From contig JAGVZQ010000003.1 in assembly GCA_018302465.1 (NCBI GenBank), positions 1-63,980 of the forward strand: DNA of 63,980 bases. Direction: 5' to 3'. The DNA comes from Candidatus Woesearchaeota archaeon. GTDB taxonomy: Archaea; Nanobdellota; Nanobdellia; SCGC-AAA011-G17; GW2011-AR20. Position numbers and translations under genes: made by a program. Of the stretch, positions 5,204 to 59,514 are shown in pieces. The notes beneath the pieces were generated by a model. That model saw nothing but the letters and a program-made list of their open reading frames with translations, made no database searches and was not told the origin of the DNA. Positions within the stretch are counted from its first letter, which is position 1. The number at the start of each line of letters is the position of its first letter.

Positions 5204-5325
5204 TGGGCCTGATCAGATTTGAATTCGTCGATAATTTCTTACCTCTGACGACCCCCACCTTATCAGACTCACCTTCTCTTTATCTAGGAAAATGTGGTGC
5301 TCTAACCAGGCTGAGCCACAGGCCC
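5204..5325 (-). tRNA. tRNA-Ile(GAT) with two non-canonical BHB introns: 30/31 (26 nt, 5268-5293) and 53/54 (21 nt, 5224-5244)
   Basis: Acceptor GGGCCTG/CAGGCCC with A73, D-arm GCTC-AGCCTGGTTA-GAGC, loop CTGATAA. Intron 1 BHB: CACC/GGTG, bulges ACA/AGT, inner helix TTTTC/GAGAA. Intron 2 BHB: CGTC/GACG, bulges AGA/AAT, inner helix GGTAA-GAAA-TTATC. The spliced product is a 75-nt cloverleaf. Confidence 0.8.
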
Positions 5326-6129
5326 ATAGTAAGAATTAATATCAACAACACCTTTTAAAATCTTTCGCCTTTCAATTATATTTGTGTTAGGCGGACAAAA
5401 TCCAAATTTCTTCCATACATCATATTTAGTAAGGTGTTTAGATGAACTAAAACCAATTTTATCCATCCAAATATCCAGATTTTTCCTACCACTAATATCA
5501 ATCTGGTGTTCGAAATTTATCTTTCCATTTCTATAGTTTCTTAAATTATAACATACACAAGAATTTATTTTTAAATTATCTAAAATGAACTTGACAAATA
5601 TAATTAAACTTTTACTCTGACTATTGATCCCTATAGAGGGATAGTAATTCCTTCGTTTGTATCTTTTCTTAAAGCTTATGCAACCATCCGTGTCAGTTAA
5701 ACCTTTCAAAAAAGCCTTCTTAATTCTAAAATTTGAACTTTTTATTAGGCTAGGAACATTCATATCTCTTTTAGAACCAGCAGGAAGGCCTATTACCCGA
5801 TTTAAAAAATAAAAAACAGCTTTTGATCTAAAACTAGTTCTTATTGTTGTTTTATTTCCAGCGTAAACCCATACTTTAATATTAAATAAATCCTTGATTA
5901 AGGGTGCTATGTAATCTTTATGAAATTCTGCTTCGTCAATTTCATGTCCATAGTATTCAACATTGTAATCAATAGTATTACAGGTTTTCCGTTTATACGC
6001 ATTAAGACAACCATCGCCAACATGGACACCAATAAAATAAGCCAATTTTTGAGTCATTTTAGTAGGAATAGTAACTTTTCTGTTAATATCAGATTTATTA
6101 AAATCAATCTTAGGAATATCCAGTTTCAT
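5302..6129 (-). CDS. Free-standing double-motif LAGLIDADG homing endonuclease-like protein
   Basis: LAYFIGVHVGDGCL and FLKGLTDTDGCI motifs. The C-terminal region is homologous to ORF 29480-30169. The last 8 codons (YGPVAQPG*) are read from the tRNA-Ile 5' exon. Confidence 0.85.
   Translation of the reverse strand: MKLDIPKIDFNKSDINRKVTIPTKMTQKLAYFIGVHVGDGCLNAYKRKTCNTIDYNVEYYGHEIDEAEFHKDYIAPLIKDLFNIKVWVYAGNKTTIRTSFRSKAVFYFLNRVIGLPAGSKRDMNVPSLIKSSNFRIKKAFLKGLTDTDGCISFKKRYKRRNYYPSIGINSQSKSLIIFVKFILDNLKINSCVCYNLRNYRNGKINFEHQIDISGRKNLDIWMDKIGFSSSKHLTKYDVWKKFGFCPPNTNIIERRKILKGVVDINSYYGPVAQPG
5353..5360 (-). promoter_or_regulatory. Candidate TATA box (TTTTAAAA) of tRNA-Ile, embedded in the LAGLIDADG coding sequence (codons I-L-K)
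   Basis: 27 nt separate the box from the mature tRNA 5' end. The same octamer sits at the equivalent codons upstream of the tRNA at 30185. Confidence 0.5.
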
Positions 6130-10832: not shown

Positions 10833-10941
10833 CGCGGGGACTGGGATTTGAACCCAGATATCCTAATGGAAACCGGTTTTCACAACCCAATTCGAGATTC
10901 GCCTATAAATCCGGCGCAGTACCGAGTTGTGCCATCCCCGC
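10833..10941 (-). tRNA. Class II tRNA-Ser(CGA) with two introns: 30/31 (13 nt, 10898-10910) and 37/38 (12 nt, 10879-10890)
   Basis: Acceptor GCGGGGA/TCCCCGC with G73, T-arm CTGGG-TTCAAAT-CCCAG, 15-nt variable arm (TCC-ATTA-GGA). After removing the two segments the anticodon arm is CCGGT-CTCGAAA-ACCGG. Intron 1 BHB: CGCC/GGCG with bulges GGA/AAT. Intron 2 has bulges AAT/AAA and a central helix with a U33 mismatch. Confidence 0.65.
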
Positions 10942-28529: not shown

Positions 28530-28925
28530 ATGACAATGAAAACTGATGATTTCGCTTATATTGTTGAAACTAACAAAACTTTCGATAATGCAGTTGTTTC
28601 TGTATTGAAAGCTGTTGAACAAAAAGGTTGGACATTGTTTCAGATTTATGATGTAAAGGAAAGGTTAGCAGCAAAGGGGTTTAACCAAAGGCCATTGAAA
28701 ATAATTGAGATATGCTCAGGCAAATATGCAAATCAATTCCTGAATAAAAATAGGTTAATATCTCTTTGTATGCCATGTAAAATTAATGTTTTGGAAGAAG
28801 ATGGAAAGATAAAAATTATTGGAATGAAACCGACTATGATTTCTCAATTCTTTCCAGAAGTAAACAAGAAAGAAGCTGAAGAAGTGGAAAAAGATATTAA
28901 AGAAATTGTTGATAATGCCAAGTGA
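28530..28925 (+). CDS. DUF302-domain protein
   Basis: About 130 aa, ...FDNAVVSVLKAVEQKGWTLFQIYDV...LISLCMPCKI pattern. Confidence 0.7.
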   Translation: MTMKTDDFAYIVETNKTFDNAVVSVLKAVEQKGWTLFQIYDVKERLAAKGFNQRPLKIIEICSGKYANQFLNKNRLISLCMPCKINVLEEDGKIKIIGMKPTMISQFFPEVNKKEAEEVEKDIKEIVDNAK

Positions 28926-29038
28926 TAAAATGAGATTCCTTTATTATTAATTTTCTATCCTTAAATTCTGCTTCTAATTCTTTAGTAGTCTTTTCTTCGC
29001 TTAATTAAAATCTAATCTGTTGTCTGCTTAACACCCCA

Positions 29039-29188
29039 TTATTTTCCAGCAAACACAGCCTTCTTAATTCCCCACAATATAATAACTAGAGCAAATACAA
29101 TACCTAAGCTGAGCATTCCTATTAAAAGGAATATCCCTAACAGCATCAAAACAACCCCCACAAAGATATCTTCCATGATCTTAGCCAT
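29039..29188 (-). CDS. Possible 49-aa two-TM micro-protein
   Basis: Reverse-strand ORF MAKIMEDIFVGVVLMLLGIFLLIGMLSLGIVFALVIILWGIKKAVFAGK*. Not in the track (too short). Confidence 0.3.
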   Translation of the reverse strand: MAKIMEDIFVGVVLMLLGIFLLIGMLSLGIVFALVIILWGIKKAVFAGK

Positions 29189-29296
29189 TAAAATCCCCCC
29201 TCATCAGTATCTATCTTGTTAACTGTGATAATATTCCTTATTTCTCTGAAGCATTTAAAAAGCTTTTTAAAGATGACTTATTAGATTATTTTGTGT

Positions 29297-29383
29297 GGGC
29301 TCGTAACTCAGCTTGGATAGAGTGCTAGCCTTCTAAGCTAGAAGTCGTGGGTTCAAAATTCAATGAAAATCCCATCGGGCCCG
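29297..29383 (+). tRNA. tRNA-Arg(TCT) with a 12-nt BHB mini-intron in the T-loop (59/60; 29358-29369)
   Basis: Acceptor GGGCTCG/CGGGCCC with G73, anticodon arm CTAGC-CTTCTAA-GCTAG. T-arm GTGGG-TTCA-AAA-TTCAA-TGAA-AAT-CCCAT. Splicing after the 2nd bulge nucleotide yields the T-loop TTCAAAT. Confidence 0.85.
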
Positions 29384-29414
29384 CATTTTTATTATTATTT
29401 AATATATATTTTTC

Positions 29415-29457
29415 ACTCACTAGCCCATCGGACAATCTCTCGGGTGAGGTTTATATA
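29415..29457 (+). promoter_or_regulatory. Conserved promoter module, copy C: 28-nt core (29415-29442), 7-nt spacer, TATA (29450-29457)
   Basis: ACTCACTAGCCCATCGGACAATCTCTCG-N7-TTTATATA, with 22 nt to the GTG at 29480. Confidence 0.7.
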
Positions 29458-29479
29458 TTGAAGGTTAAAGAATACTATT

Positions 29480-30169
29480 GTGAGAAAGACAAATATCTAT
29501 GAATTCATTGGAGTGATAATTGGAGACGGTTCCCTCCTGTATAACCCAAAGAGGAGAGTTTACAGACTTGAAATAGCGGGAAATGCCACAGAAGATTATC
29601 CTTATTTTTTAAAGTTAAAACAGTTTATGGTGAAAAGTATGGGATATACACCAAAAATAAGATTCAGGACACACAAAAAAGGAAGAAGCATTTGCTTATA
29701 TTTGGATAATAAAAAGTTTTTAGAGTTTATGAAGAGTCTAGACTTACCATTTGGGAAAAAAACTTTTACAATAACTATCCCTAGTAATTTTCTTAACTGG
29801 AAATATTCAAAACACATAATAAGGGGAATCTTTGAAAGTGATGGTTCACTTTACTTTTCAAAAAGTAAGATAACTACAAATAAACCAACCTATCCCCGAA
29901 TAGAGATAAAAACTTCAAGTGAAAAACTAGTGTATCAAATAAAAAGTATCTTAAGTGAGAATGGTTTTAGTGTACAAACTATAGCTCCAAAAAGAGATAA
30001 AGCTACTAAGATTTACATTTCAGGGGAAAGAATGTTGAATAAGTGGATTGATGAGATCGGATTTAGCAGTAGAAAAAATTTGACCAAATATCTGTATTGG
30101 GATAAATTAGGATACTACACACCTCGTTCTACACTAAGGCAAAGAGAAACCCTTTTAAAATCTCCTTAG
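29480..30169 (+). CDS. Free-standing double-motif LAGLIDADG homing endonuclease-like protein (GTG start)
   Basis: YEFIGVIIGDGSL and IIRGIFESDGSL motifs. C-terminal ISGERMLNKWIDEIGFSSRKNLTKY is homologous to 5302-6129. Confidence 0.85.
   Translation: MRKTNIYEFIGVIIGDGSLLYNPKRRVYRLEIAGNATEDYPYFLKLKQFMVKSMGYTPKIRFRTHKKGRSICLYLDNKKFLEFMKSLDLPFGKKTFTITIPSNFLNWKYSKHIIRGIFESDGSLYFSKSKITTNKPTYPRIEIKTSSEKLVYQIKSILSENGFSVQTIAPKRDKATKIYISGERMLNKWIDEIGFSSRKNLTKYLYWDKLGYYTPRSTLRQRETLLKSP
30153..30160 (+). promoter_or_regulatory. Candidate TATA box (TTTTAAAA) of the downstream tRNA, embedded in the last codons (L-L-K) of the LAGLIDADG gene
   Basis: 24 nt separate the box from the tRNA 5' end at 30185. 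Confidence 0.5.
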
Positions 30170-30184
30170 TTAATTTCATATAAG

Positions 30185-30322
30185 GGGCACATCGCCAAGA
30201 TGAGTTATTCATGGCAACGGTTAAGGCAGTCGATATTCCAAAAGAATAGCTGAACCTGCAGACCATTTGGCCGAGAGCGACTATCGCAGGTTCGAAATTT
30301 AACGAAAATCCTGCTGTGCCCT
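30185..30322 (+). tRNA. tRNA-Cys(GCA)-like gene with four predicted introns: D-loop (30200-30217), 30/31 (30233-30254), 37/38 (30262-30275), 59/60 (30297-30308)
   Basis: Acceptor GGGCACA/TGTGCCC with U73. Three introns have clean BHBs (GCCA/TGGC, CAGT/GCTG, TTCG/CGAA, each with 3-nt bulges and inner hairpins). The 37/38 intron has bulges AGA/AGA and a central helix with a U33 mismatch. The spliced 72-nt product folds as GCCA-AGCGGTTA-AGGC, GTCGC-CTGCAGA-GCGAC, GCAGG-TTCGAAT-CCTGC. Confidence 0.6.
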
Positions 30323-30334
30323 TTTTTAATTAAA

Positions 30335-30664
30335 ATGAAAAGTCTAAAGTTTCACACTATTTTAATTCCTCTAATTTTATCGAAAAGAAAAACATCAACT
30401 TGGAGATTGTTTGATGATAAGGAATTGAAGGAAGGGGATATTGTAAATTTTATCAACAATAAAACCCTAGGAAAATTTGCAAAAGCAGAGCTAACAAACA
30501 TAAAAATTAAAAAATTCAAGGATTTAACAGAGAACGATTGGAAAGGTCATGAGGAATACAGTTCTGATAAAGAGATGTACAAAAAGTACACTAAATACTA
30601 TAAAAAACCAATAAATGGAGAAACAGAACTAAAAATAATCTCTTTCAGATTAATCACTTCTTAA
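30335..30664 (+). CDS. ASCH (PUA-like) domain protein
   Basis: KRKTSTWRLFDDKELKEGDIV...AKAELTNIKIKKF pattern. Confidence 0.55.
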   Translation: MKSLKFHTILIPLILSKRKTSTWRLFDDKELKEGDIVNFINNKTLGKFAKAELTNIKIKKFKDLTENDWKGHEEYSSDKEMYKKYTKYYKKPINGETELKIISFRLITS

Positions 30665-30763
30665 ACTTCTTCTTATAATTTTCAATGCCTTTCTTCAACT
30701 TAGGTCATGATTTGTAAAACTTACGATAAGGAATAAAAAATAAATAAAAAAAGAAAAAAGTGT

Positions 30764-56490: not shown

Positions 56491-59400
56491 ATGGCAATTG
56501 TAGATTCCTATAGTTTCTATTCAGGAAACATACCGGTAAAAATAGCTATAGAAAGCGATAGAAACGAATTTGTTCTAATCTACAAAGTTTCAATTTCTCA
56601 AATAAGTGCAAATACAGATATAGTTCTGGATAAAATAAGGGAAGAGCTGATAGAAAAGGTAAAGCTGGGGATTGGAGACATTACAGATCCCAAAAAATTA
56701 GATTTTGTTAAGGAGAAATTTAAAAAAACAATTATTAACCTGATAAAAAAATACTTCCCAGATATCTCAGATGAAACTTTAGATTTTTTTACAACCTATT
56801 TAATGCACAAAAGCTTTGGTCTTGGAAAAGTAGAAATATTAATGAAAGACAAGGATCTTGAAGAGATAGTAATAAACAATGCAGAAGAGCCTATATGGGT
56901 ATATCACCATAAATACGGCTGGTTAAAAACAAATGTTCTGTTAAAAGATGAAGGATTGGTAAAGCACTATTCAAGTTTAATCGGAAGGAAGGTTGGAAGA
57001 AGTATTACTTTGTTAACCCCATTATTGGATGCAACATTGGAAACAGGAGACAGAGTAAATGCAACACTAAACCCAATTTCATCAAAAGGAAACACAATAA
57101 CAATAAGAAAGTTTTCTTCAGACCCAATAACAATTACAAAATTCATACAGAACCAGGTAATGAGCTACTCAACAGCAGCTTTAATCTGGTTAGGTGTTGA
57201 ATATGAATCCTCAGTTTTGATAAGCGGAGGGACGGCTTCGGGAAAAACGAGTGTCCTAAACGCAGTAGGAGAATTCTTCCCTCCAAATCAAAGAATTATC
57301 TCAGTTGAAGACAGTGTTTCAGGGGATTCTGAAATTGTTTACAAAGATAAAGGAGTAATAAAAAAATCAACAATAGGAAACTTAATTGACAGTCAAATAA
57401 AAATTGAAAAGATAGTTTTGCATGATGGTACGGAAATTGCAGAAAACAAAGATGTAGAAATTTTGAGCATGGATAATTATGGAAAAATTTCTTTAGCTAA
57501 ACCCAGTTCTTTTATAAGGCATAAGGTAAAAAAACCACTTATTGAGATAAGATTGTCAAGTGGTAGAAAAATAACTGTTACCAAAGATCATTCTTTATTT
57601 AGTCTAGTTGATAATAAAATTAAGGAAGTAAGCGGTTCTGAAATTAAGGAAGGAACTTTTTTAGCCACTCCTAGAAAAATAGAGTATGAAGGAAGTTTTA
57701 AAATTATAGACCTAAGCATCCATCTCGATAAATTTGAAGATTGCATGGTTTCAGGAAATGTCATAAAGAGATTAATACAGGAACATGGACTTGATTTAGT
57801 TAGAAACAAAAGTAACAGACAATATTATAGAAGAGAAGGAATAGTCCCTGTTGCAGTTTTTAAGAAATTATTGTCTTATATTAAAGAAGAAGACAAGAAA
57901 TCCCTGAGTATAGTTACAAAGAGAAGCCATAAAGAGGGGAGGACCCAATTGCCTTTGTTGATTAATATCGATAATAACTTTGCAACTATAGTGGGTATGT
58001 GGCTTGCAGATGGATGTTATGATATTAGGTCTGTATTGATTAGTGATCCAGCAAAGGAGTCTTGGGAAATTTTACATAAATTTGCAAATATTTTTGGTGC
58101 TAGAGTAAGGCCACATAGTGATAAGGTAACTGCTGTAATAAACTCAAAGATAATAAAGGTTTTATTTAAGGATATCTTGGAATTAAAAGGAAATGCCTAC
58201 ACCAAAAGAATCCCTATATGGGCATTTAACTTAAACAAAGAACTTTCATCTTCATTGCTTAAAGGATACTTCAGCGGGGATGGTACTGTTAAAAAAAATG
58301 AAATATGTGTAAACAGCGCTTCCAGGGGATTATTAAATGATGTTCAGACCCTATTGCTGAGATTTGAAATCCTTTTAAGGGTTAGTTGGAAGCTAAATAA
58401 AGACAAAACTTATGAATCTAGAATCGGTTGCTCTAAATTTTTAAAGAAATTCAAAATAGATATAGGTTTTGTTCAGAATTATAAAAATGTAAAACTAAAC
58501 AAAATATGCGACAGAAAACCTAGTGATTCCAGCGACATTATTCCCTTAGCTAAGAATACATATTTAAAATTAAAACATATCCTTGGAAAAGGTTTCAAAG
58601 AAAATATGCCATACACATCTTGGAAATCCTGGCATGGAAATTATAAAAATTCACATATTGGGAGAAGTTACTTTTCATTATTAATGAAAACTCTTGATAT
58701 CTCTTCAATTTCTTTTGTGGATTCGGAAATAAAAAATATCGTAAGTTTAAGCAAAAATGATATTTTCTGGGATAAAGTAATAGGAATTAAAGAAATAGAT
58801 TTTGAAGGATATGTTTATGACTTAAGCGTCCCAGAAAGAGAAAATTTTATTTGTAATAATATAATCGCCCATAACACTAGAGAAATAACTTTGCCTAAAT
58901 ATCTCCACTGGGTTCCTATGATTACAAGATTACCAAACATAGAAGGAAAAGGTGGGGTTTCTATGCTTGACTTAATAATTAATTCATTAAGAATGAGACC
59001 TGATAGAATAATGGTAGGAGAGATAAGAAGAAAGGAAGAAGCAGAAACATTATTTGAAGCCATGCATACAGGTCACTCAGTTTATGCTACATTGCATGCA
59101 AATAGTGCAGAAGAAACAGTTAACAGGTTGACAAATCCCCCCATTAATGTTCCTAGAACTCTCCTTCCTGCAATAGGAATGGTATTAGTTATGTACAGAA
59201 ACAGAAGAACAGGAATCAGAAGAATTTTCCAGATAGCAGAGATAACAAATGAATCTAATCCAAACGTGCTTTTGCAGTATGATATCTCTCAGGATAAAAT
59301 TTTAACAGCAAATGAATCTGTGAAATTTATGCCTGACCTTGAGATTCAGACAGGTATGTCAAAGAATGAAATAAACTTGGATCTGACAAATAAAATAAAC

Positions 59401-59514
59401 ATCTTAAAATGGATGGTAAAAAAGAATATCACAGATCTTGATGAAATTGGCAGAGTTATTGCAACTTATTACACAAATAAAGAGGGCTTATTAAAGTTCA
59501 TAAGTAAAAATTAA
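56491..59514 (+). CDS. FlaI/PilB/VirB11-class type IV pilus or archaellum assembly ATPase, interrupted by an intein
   Basis: Walker A ISGGTASGKTS. RIISVED|intein|TREITLP. MVGEIRRKEEAETLFEAMHTGH. The extein is about 486 aa. Confidence 0.9.
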   Translation: MAIVDSYSFYSGNIPVKIAIESDRNEFVLIYKVSISQISANTDIVLDKIREELIEKVKLGIGDITDPKKLDFVKEKFKKTIINLIKKYFPDISDETLDFFTTYLMHKSFGLGKVEILMKDKDLEEIVINNAEEPIWVYHHKYGWLKTNVLLKDEGLVKHYSSLIGRKVGRSITLLTPLLDATLETGDRVNATLNPISSKGNTITIRKFSSDPITITKFIQNQVMSYSTAALIWLGVEYESSVLISGGTASGKTSVLNAVGEFFPPNQRIISVEDSVSGDSEIVYKDKGVIKKSTIGNLIDSQIKIEKIVLHDGTEIAENKDVEILSMDNYGKISLAKPSSFIRHKVKKPLIEIRLSSGRKITVTKDHSLFSLVDNKIKEVSGSEIKEGTFLATPRKIEYEGSFKIIDLSIHLDKFEDCMVSGNVIKRLIQEHGLDLVRNKSNRQYYRREGIVPVAVFKKLLSYIKEEDKKSLSIVTKRSHKEGRTQLPLLINIDNNFATIVGMWLADGCYDIRSVLISDPAKESWEILHKFANIFGARVRPHSDKVTAVINSKIIKVLFKDILELKGNAYTKRIPIWAFNLNKELSSSLLKGYFSGDGTVKKNEICVNSASRGLLNDVQTLLLRFEILLRVSWKLNKDKTYESRIGCSKFLKKFKIDIGFVQNYKNVKLNKICDRKPSDSSDIIPLAKNTYLKLKHILGKGFKENMPYTSWKSWHGNYKNSHIGRSYFSLLMKTLDISSISFVDSEIKNIVSLSKNDIFWDKVIGIKEIDFEGYVYDLSVPERENFICNNIIAHNTREITLPKYLHWVPMITRLPNIEGKGGVSMLDLIINSLRMRPDRIMVGEIRRKEEAETLFEAMHTGHSVYATLHANSAEETVNRLTNPPINVPRTLLPAIGMVLVMYRNRRTGIRRIFQIAEITNESNPNVLLQYDISQDKILTANESVKFMPDLEIQTGMSKNEINLDLTNKINILKWMVKKNITDLDEIGRVIATYYTNKEGLLKFISKN
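57313..58875 (+). mobile_element. 521-aa intein (Ser1 ... His-Asn / Thr+1) with an embedded LAGLIDADG homing endonuclease domain
   Basis: Block A SVSGDSEIV, block B VTKDH, LAGLIDADG motifs IVGMWLADGCYD and LLKGYFSGDGTV, block G VYDLSVPERENFICNNIIAHN|T. Removing it restores the ED-TRE motif of the ATPase. Confidence 0.85.

Follow-up and report, generated by a model that had tools for sequence, protein, structure and literature searches.

A tRNA-Cys(GCA) gene with four predicted bulge-helix-bulge introns in a Woesearchaeota archaeon and its natural alleles with zero to four introns

Comparative analysis of a 63,980-nt stretch of DNA from a Candidatus Woesearchaeota archaeon (GenBank assembly GCA_018302465.1, contig JAGVZQ010000003.1; hereafter the window, meaning the whole stretch analysed) indicated that positions 30185-30322 on the plus strand very probably constitute a functional tRNA-Cys(GCA) gene. 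Its sequence predicts four protein-spliced mini-introns of the bulge-helix-bulge (BHB) type, located at tRNA positions 15/16, 30/31, 37/38, and 59/60. The decisive evidence for this exon-intron structure, at single-nucleotide resolution, is the comparison with orthologous genes.

The gene is complete and spans 138 nt with five exons and four introns, all on the plus strand, and CCA is not encoded. The letters were re-read and were exactly those given in the original prediction, and the nine segments concatenate to 138 nt. Exon 1 (30185-30199, 15 nt) comprises the 5′ strand of the acceptor stem, U8, C9, the 5′ strand of the D-stem, A14, and G15, and has the same sequence in the orthologs L025, L034-37, and L044 (related loci are denoted by L numbers). 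It is followed by intron 1 in the D-loop (30200-30217, 18 nt, position 15/16) and by exon 2 (30218-30232, 15 nt), which holds the remaining D-loop, the 3′ strand of the D-stem, A26, and G27-G30. Intron 2 (30233-30254, 22 nt, position 30/31) precedes exon 3 (30255-30261), a 7-nt micro-exon with the sequence CCTGCAG that consists of C31 and the anticodon-loop nucleotides 32-37, including the anticodon GCA. Intron 3 (30262-30275, 14 nt) occupies the canonical position 37/38, and exon 4 (30276-30296, 21 nt) contains A38, the 3′ strand of the anticodon stem, a 4-nt variable loop, the 5′ strand of the T-stem, and the T-loop nucleotides 54-59. Intron 4 in the T-loop (30297-30308, 12 nt, position 59/60) is followed by exon 5 (30309-30322, 14 nt), with U60, the 3′ strands of the T-stem and the acceptor stem, and the discriminator U73.

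The joined exons form a 72-nt cloverleaf that was called tRNA-Cys(GCA) by ARAGORN. Every stem is intact, the acceptor stem (7 bp) and the anticodon stem (5 bp) being perfectly paired and the T-stem having 5 bp, and the conserved nucleotides U8, A14, G18G19, U33, G37, the T-loop TTCGAAT, and U73 are all present. The hallmarks of tRNA-Cys, namely the anticodon GCA in the 7-nt loop CUGCAGA with U33, and U73, are kept in all 13 alleles described below. The original prediction had proposed a 72-nt mature tRNA-Cys(GCA) with this loop and U73, as well as the same four intron positions and eight cleavage sites; the spliced product and the orthologs bear out the former, and orthologs that lack or share each intron match the latter junctions precisely. 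The G + C content is 61% in the exons, 33% in the introns, and approximately 31% in the window. Self-splicing group I or group II introns do not account for the insertions, as introns of 12-22 nt are too short, and no Rfam intron match was obtained in 28900-30700 at E values up to 10.

Alleles of the gene were collected by using the adjoining ASCH gene as a synteny anchor, together with one exon-anchored scan of JGI metagenomes, which yielded 13 distinct alleles. All of them splice to an ARAGORN-valid tRNA-Cys(GCA), and the number of introns ranges from zero to four. No introns are present in L046 and L049/L056. Only intron 4 is found in L025 and in L034-37/L048 (11 nt in the latter), and only intron 1 in L038/L054/L055. 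L044, whose exons are identical to those of the window, has introns 1 and 4; L050 and L043/L045/L052/L053 have introns 2 and 3; and L047 and L051 have introns 2, 3, and 4. L057 carries introns 2 and 3 plus a different D-loop intron at 14/15. All four introns are present in the window population, which comprises two length variants. Several of the orthologous genes share the gene context of the window; among the more distant ASCH homologues (58-59% identity; L039-L042), synteny with tRNA-Cys was lost.

The ortholog L025 comes from the closest genome that bears a name, a groundwater metagenome-assembled genome of Candidatus Woesearchaeota archaeon (JACQNJ010000013.1), in which tRNA-Cys lies directly upstream of the same ASCH-domain gene as in the window. 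All 72 exon bases are identical between the two, and segments of exactly 18, 22, and 14 nt, corresponding to introns 1-3, are missing from L025, which retains the 59/60 intron with one substitution. The exons do not differ among the window, L025, and L034, even though DNA identity across the adjoining ASCH gene is no higher than 89-91%. Every one of the four segments is precisely missing in some relatives and present but diverged at the same site in others. Intron 1 is precisely missing in L025 and L034, and homologous 22-nt introns occupy its site in L044 and L038. Intron 2 is precisely missing in L025, L034, L044, and L038, with homologs of 22-27 nt in L043, L047, L050, L051, and L057. Intron 3 is precisely missing in L025 and others, with homologous introns of 12-14 nt in five other alleles, and intron 4 is missing in L038, L049, L046, L050, and L043 and occurs in versions altered by substitutions or indels in L025, L034, L044, L047, and L051. 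By hand comparison, introns 2 and 3 of the window are approximately 68% identical to those of the closest allele, L050. Alleles of one gene with zero, one, two, three, and four introns, in close relatives with identical exons, form an unusually clean natural series in which intron gain and loss can be studied and from which splicing substrates can be designed.

The BHB rule, which requires a 4-bp central helix between 3-nt bulges, each of them cut behind its second nucleotide (marked ^ below), was applied at the junctions fixed by the orthologs. In every allele, introns 1, 2, and 4 have a fully paired (4/4) central helix, and intron 3 forms three of the four pairs. Introns 1 and 2 are strict hBHBh′ motifs with an inner helix of 4-8 bp, whereas introns 3 and 4 are relaxed bulge-helix-loop (BHL) motifs. 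The original prediction had applied the same rule throughout and ranked the 37/38 intron as the weakest; the helix and bulge geometry was found as proposed for introns 1, 2, and 4, intron 3 comes close to it, with the one mismatch already noted there, and the ranking agrees with the 3/4 pairing.

The motif of intron 1 is GCCA-AG^A-TGA(A)...(T)TCA-TGGC-AA^C. Its central helix is GCCA/TGGC in the window and L044 and shows the compensatory form GCTA/TAGC in L038, whose D-stem partner also differs. Intron 2 has the motif CAGT-CG^A-TATTC-CAAAA-GAATA-GCTG-AA^C, with a central helix of CAGT/GCTG or CAGT/ACTG among the alleles. The inner helix of this intron covaries strongly, being TATTC/GAATA, TACTT/AAGTA, TGTTTTC/GAAAACA, or TTTTCTAA/TTAGAAAA, and is paired in each lineage. 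Intron 4 forms an hBH/BHL motif, TTCG-AA^A-TTTAA-CGAA-AA^T, with the T-stem as its outer helix; the central helix of the 59/60 intron is TTCG/CGAA in tRNA-Cys and the compensatory TTCA/TGAA in the neighbouring tRNA-Arg. When the introns were shuffled individually, 0.5%, 0.9%, 17%, and 1.4% of the trials (introns 1-4, respectively) attained the central-helix pairing of the real sequence, and none of 20,000 trials did so for all four introns jointly.

The joint shuffle also bears on the suggestion that the cloverleaf is a chance result of four free excisions, or an assembly artefact. The 4-bp rule is permissive by itself, and ARAGORN accepts many arbitrary excisions as long as the acceptor and T arms are intact. 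However, natural alleles without each segment reproduce the junctions exactly, and the locus recurs in at least 21 contigs that stem from different samples and were built by different assemblers. Together with the joint shuffle, these observations already refute a chance or artefactual origin, to which we assign next to no probability.

Intron 3, with the motif CTGC-AG^A...GCCG-AG^A and a U33×C mismatch in the window, required closer consideration. In all six alleles that carry it, the mismatch lies at U33 or C35 and an inner helix is missing. Its outer helix is the anticodon stem, which is complete only once intron 2 has been removed. Within the window, the register of this intron is ambiguous, as positions from 35/36 to 38/39 yield the same product. 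Placement at 35/36, 36/37, or 38/39 was ruled out, because L050 permits only 37/38, which fits every allele with intron 3. Despite its weak motif, intron 3 is a genuine intron, since it is precisely missing in orthologs.

Variation within the window population was analyzed by comparing 204 nt in and around the gene among 20 contigs that came from independent samples and assemblers. The contigs differed only by a 9-nt tandem duplication (GAATAGCTG) wholly within intron 2, which is present in 12 of the 20 contigs (L001-L003, L007, L010, L011, L013, L014, and L016-L019) relative to window positions 30246-30254. Intron 2 of the duplication variant is 31 nt long, and the 3′ half of its BHB, GCTG-AA^C, is regenerated. 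The proteins of the window likewise recur on many groundwater-metagenome contigs, including ANAN16 scaffolds and JGI and ENA assemblies.

Signals that may direct expression flank the gene. A putative promoter region (30146-30165, plus strand) consists of a purine-rich stretch resembling a B recognition element and a TATA-like box, TTTTAAAA (30153-30160), approximately 25-32 nt upstream of the 5′ end of the tRNA, and sits within the 3′ end of a LAGLIDADG open reading frame (ORF). Comparable A/T-rich, TATA-like motifs (e.g., CTTTTAAAATCT, CTTTATAAAATCT, and CTTTTAATTCT) precede the orthologs by roughly this distance, and from the known architecture of archaeal promoters we infer that the TATA-like box acts as a promoter. 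Directly after the discriminator, a TTTTT run (30323-30327, plus strand) represents a putative terminator, at which transcription is likely to end, judging from oligo-T termination in archaea.

These data allow a second alternative to be weighed, in which the locus is a decaying, non-functional tRNA-Cys copy with insertions and an intact second tRNA-Cys elsewhere in the genome does the work. Such a reading is in keeping with the imperfect central helix of intron 3 and with the failure of standard tools to recognize the gene, and the survey of tRNA genes covered the window. The features expected of a pseudogene were nevertheless not found: all stems are intact, the putative promoter and terminator are kept, and the exons are identical at 72 of 72 bases to those of three other lineages whose flanking gene has diverged by 9-11%. 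Moreover, the insertions lie exactly at BHB-compatible sites with 3-nt bulges, and the sole polymorphism in the population is intronic and preserves the motif. The locus is also syntenic with the tRNA-Cys gene of its relatives, and homologous introns with compensatory changes persist in other species. A decaying copy is thus considered very improbable in comparison with a functional, interrupted gene.

The recognition of the gene by standard tools was evaluated separately. The unspliced segment 30185-30322 gave no match with ARAGORN or with Rfam, either at the gathering threshold or at E values up to 10. With the Rfam tRNA model, intron-less tRNA-Cys orthologs score 67-69 bits, and nearly all interrupted alleles are missed at the gathering threshold, including orthologs with a single intron. 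As a sole validator of excisions, ARAGORN proved too lax and was set aside: when single segments were removed arbitrarily from the tRNA-Ser gene of the window, it still called a tRNA in 961 of 2751 cases, so that an ARAGORN call on a spliced product alone is weak support. A "missing tRNA-Cys" in such DPANN genomes should be taken as a blind spot of annotation and not as biology. This gap fits the published remark that the tRNA sets of DPANN archaea look incomplete, which was taken to point to unidentified disrupted genes (Kaneta et al., 2018, PMC5829648).

A processing route for the functional gene can be proposed by analogy with the established archaeal pathway, from which all of its steps (transcription, trimming, cutting, ligation, and CCA addition) are derived. 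Transcription would be driven by the TATA-like promoter (30153-30160) and end at the T-run (30323-30327), the ends of the transcript would be trimmed by RNase P and RNase Z, and CCA would be added. An archaeal splicing endonuclease (EndA) would cut after the second nucleotide of every 3-nt bulge, making eight cuts, and an RtcB-type ligase would join the five exons (15, 15, 7, 21, and 14 nt) in four ligations to give the 72-nt tRNA. An endonuclease of broad specificity is expected, because introns 3 and 4 are relaxed BHL motifs. In several DPANN lineages, an alpha4 EndA with an L3 loop has been described and is associated with more disrupted tRNA genes (Kaneta et al., 2018, PMC5829648).

The order of intron removal may be constrained by the folds themselves. 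The BHBs of introns 1, 2, and 4 share no nucleotides, so they could form together in the primary transcript. The intron-2 BHB occupies C25-U28 with its central helix and G23/G24 with its outer helix, and the intron-3 motif requires the anticodon stem G27-C31/G39-C43 as its outer helix. The two conformations are mutually exclusive because both use G27 and U28, and introns 2 and 3 would therefore be cut and ligated in turn, most simply intron 2 before intron 3. Such stepwise removal would keep the 7-nt exon 3 tethered on one side, so that it would not be freed as a fragment. Neighbouring BHBs that need sequential removal have been described in archaeal tRNAs (PMC8450103), and in a three-intron tRNA of Cyanidioschyzon merolae the 37/38 intron is the final one to be excised (Soma et al., 2013, PMC3728597).

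Several observations weigh against splicing of the gene as proposed here. The central helix of intron 3 is one pair short in every allele and is equalled by a shuffled intron 17% of the time. In the minimum free energy (MFE) fold of the full precursor, only the motif of intron 4 and the hairpin of intron 2 appear and BHBs 1-3 are not seen, and a structure with BHBs 1, 2, and 4 together lies approximately 16 kcal/mol above the MFE. Because of this lower stability, protein binding or co-transcriptional folding would be required, and the discrepancy was attributed to the limits of thermodynamic prediction and not counted against splicing. Finally, neither EndA nor RtcB was found in the window or in 495 kb of related DNA, as searched with Pfam on 50 ORFs of the window and with tblastn of an M. 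jannaschii EndA sequence against the 495 kb.

Introns 2 and 3 showed an additional pattern. They are both present or both missing in all 13 alleles, and the same layout of 30/31 and 37/38 introns around a 7-nt anticodon exon recurs in the tRNA-Ser(CGA) gene of the window and in the tRNA-Arg(TCT) gene of L030. The core of intron 3, TTTGGC(CG), is complementary to nucleotides 10-15 or 16-23 of the D-arm (window positions 30194-30199 and 30218-30225, respectively). For all six 37/38 introns with a 3/4 central helix, comprising five Cys alleles (the window, L043, L047, L050, and L051) and the tRNA-Ser, the longest exon-intron helix is formed with the D-arm and measures 7-10 bp; the fractions of shuffled sequences that reach it range from 0 of 5000 up to 0.1. 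Examples are CACAACTCGG/TTGGGTTGTG in tRNA-Ser, whose 37/38 intron has a D-arm complementarity of 10 bp, CTAAGTGGTT/AACTGCTTAG in L043, and TAGCCAAGCG/CGTTTGGTTA in L050. In the 37/38 introns with a perfect central helix (tRNA-Arg of L030 and tRNA-Gly), the D-arm helix is only 4 bp long, which corresponds to the chance level.

One tentative explanation is that introns 2 and 3 make up a twin cassette that is gained, lost, or moved jointly and is processed through pairing of the 37/38 intron with the D-arm instead of a standard 37/38 BHB. Their co-occurrence in all 13 alleles, the recurrence of the layout in tRNA-Ser(CGA) and tRNA-Arg(TCT), and the contrast between the six imperfect 37/38 introns and the two perfect ones are in favor of this possibility. 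On the other hand, the co-occurrence could result from the 7-nt spacing and shared descent with no functional link between the introns, the five Cys alleles do not count as independent cases, and the pattern is seen in only two independent tRNA families. The twin of the L030 tRNA-Arg is devoid of D-arm complementarity, and since a D-arm helix cannot by itself position the two cut sites at a 4-bp spacing, 37/38 would still require a BHB-like fold. We consider such a cassette possible but less likely than independent introns removed through BHB folds.

A slightly more speculative version of the idea is a coupled twin-intron module, in which the 37/38 intron acts as an antisense of its own D-arm, frees the 3′ strand of the D-stem for the 30/31 BHB, and clamps the RNA halves together. 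Pairing of intron 3 with the 5′ strand of the D-stem could favor the intron-2 fold, because the intron-2 BHB consumes the 3′ strand of the D-stem. If this doubtful proposal were correct, it would imply an ordered cut-ligate-cut-ligate route that protects the micro-exon, a new intron-encoded control of the splicing of multi-intron tRNAs, and possibly a twin module that moves as a unit between tRNA genes.

The number of introns was compared with that of known tRNA genes. A maximum of three introns per tRNA gene has been stated in reviews and tool papers (PMC8450103, PMC3239211), and the original prediction had accordingly regarded four as exceptional. This statement is superseded by Supplementary Data 4 of Valentin-Alvarado et al. 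(2024, PMC11291895), which lists four curated introns in Arg-TCT, Ile2-CAT, and Leu-GAG of Freyarchaeia and in Trp-CCA of Atabeyarchaeia-2; the same study describes the Asgard genomes as intron-rich, with 228 introns in three genomes. A full-text literature search found no main-text statement on four-intron archaeal tRNA genes. Four introns are thus rare but not unprecedented, and the present gene ties the highest number found for any tRNA gene. It is the first four-intron tRNA gene in DPANN that the literature search brought to light, and it is validated at the nucleotide level by natural alleles. Four introns contradict the maximum of three that is still given in reviews and in the tRNAscan-SE 2.0 paper.

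The Asgard genes resemble the present gene in being archaeal and in having multiple non-canonical introns, up to four. They belong to another superphylum (Asgard vs. DPANN) and are longer (143-231 vs. 138 nt). Furthermore, the four-intron cases are documented solely in supplementary data, where neither a comparative validation of the junctions nor an allelic series is reported, unlike the gene described here. Three-intron genes of Thermoproteales (Sugahara et al., 2007, 2008, as cited in PMC8450103 and PMC3239211) likewise contain BHB or relaxed BHB mini-introns at non-canonical positions; according to these citations, adjacent introns are also removed one by one, and the intron number rose rapidly in one lineage. 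As presented there, the maximum is three introns, and the hosts are hyperthermophilic Crenarchaeota with a heterotetrameric (alpha-beta)2 EndA that has a Crenarchaea-specific loop, whereas the present organism is a mesophilic DPANN archaeon with approximately 31% G + C.

The pre-tRNA-Cys(GCA) of ARMAN-2 (Micrarchaeum) is similar in its DPANN origin, tRNA identity, 59/60 position, and relaxed hBH/BHL motif, but has one intron instead of four. Its 13-nt 59/60 hBH intron was cleaved in vitro by epsilon2 EndA (Fujishima et al., 2011, PMC3239211), which provides a direct experimental precedent for intron 4. The epsilon2 EndA is known only from ARMAN-1/-2 and Mancarchaeum (PMC5829648). Nuclear tRNAs of C. 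merolae also have multiple BHB-type introns (D-arm, 37/38, and T-loop) in one gene, and ordered removal with the 37/38 intron last was shown experimentally; this organism is a eukaryote, its maximum is three introns, and some of its genes are permuted (Soma et al., 2013, PMC3728597). Extreme tRNA fragmentation, known from Thermoproteales and recently from Asgard archaea, extends to the small-genome DPANN Woesearchaeota. Specialists in tRNA and archaeal RNA processing may be interested mainly in the series of alleles, the occurrence in DPANN, the gap in annotation, and the pattern of twin introns and D-arm pairing.

The genome is rich in introns beyond tRNA-Cys. The window contains five tRNA genes with eight introns, all of which are explained by the same BHB rule. 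Besides tRNA-Cys, tRNA-Gly(CCC) (1801-1887) has one canonical intron and tRNA-Asn(GTT) has none. The class II tRNA-Ser(CGA) gene (10833-10941, minus strand) has a 13-nt intron at 30/31 (10898-10910) and a 12-nt intron at 37/38 (10879-10890), which enclose a 7-nt anticodon micro-exon (10891-10897); the central helix is 4/4 for the former and 3/4 for the latter. This gene was missed by ARAGORN, and Rfam mispaired its anticodon stem and placed 38 nt in one insert. The tRNA-Arg(TCT) gene (29297-29383, plus strand) has one 12-nt 59/60 intron (29358-29369) of the same type as intron 4 of tRNA-Cys. Rfam reported it as a borderline 59-nt tRNA (29297-29355, 29.1 bits), a misreading caused by the 59/60 intron, which breaks the T-arm.

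The intron content of tRNA-Arg(TCT) also varies among orthologs, with introns at 9/10, 28/29, and 59/60 in L025 (minus strand, approximately 1436-1559), at 30/31, 37/38, and 59/60 in L030 (minus strand, approximately 265-375), and at 9/10 and 37/38 in L044. The central helices are perfect 4-bp helices in the parses checked. For the tRNA-Arg of L025, an additional, fourth intron within the acceptor stem (GGGCT^...^CG) was considered and rejected, as no BHB was found in either register and a perfect GGGCCCG acceptor is obtained without the excision. Near-identical 12-nt 59/60 introns (A-NNNAA-YGAA-AA) were observed in tRNA-Pro of Woesearchaeota, tRNA-Gln of Pacearchaeota, tRNA-Ala of Thermoplasmatota, and tRNA-Leu of Thermoplasmata (L027, L031, L032, and L033), a similarity that is mostly imposed by the search pattern.

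Three LAGLIDADG elements were identified in the window. A free-standing endonuclease-like ORF of 229 aa (29480-30169, plus strand) lies between tRNA-Arg and tRNA-Cys, a second free-standing ORF is located at 5302-6129 on the minus strand, and an intein with a LAGLIDADG domain interrupts a secretion ATPase (56491-59514, plus strand). The 229-aa protein had no sequence match in the PDB, and a role of this protein in intron mobility was considered and found no support. In L046, tRNA-Arg and tRNA-Cys are 3 nt apart with no ORF between them, and a longer LAGLIDADG ORF (283 aa) occupies this place in L034-37. The archaeal character of the window is evident from its other genes, among whose products are aTrm56, Nre, AglB/STT3, MetRS and AlaRS of archaeal type, and the ribosomal proteins L1 and L10.

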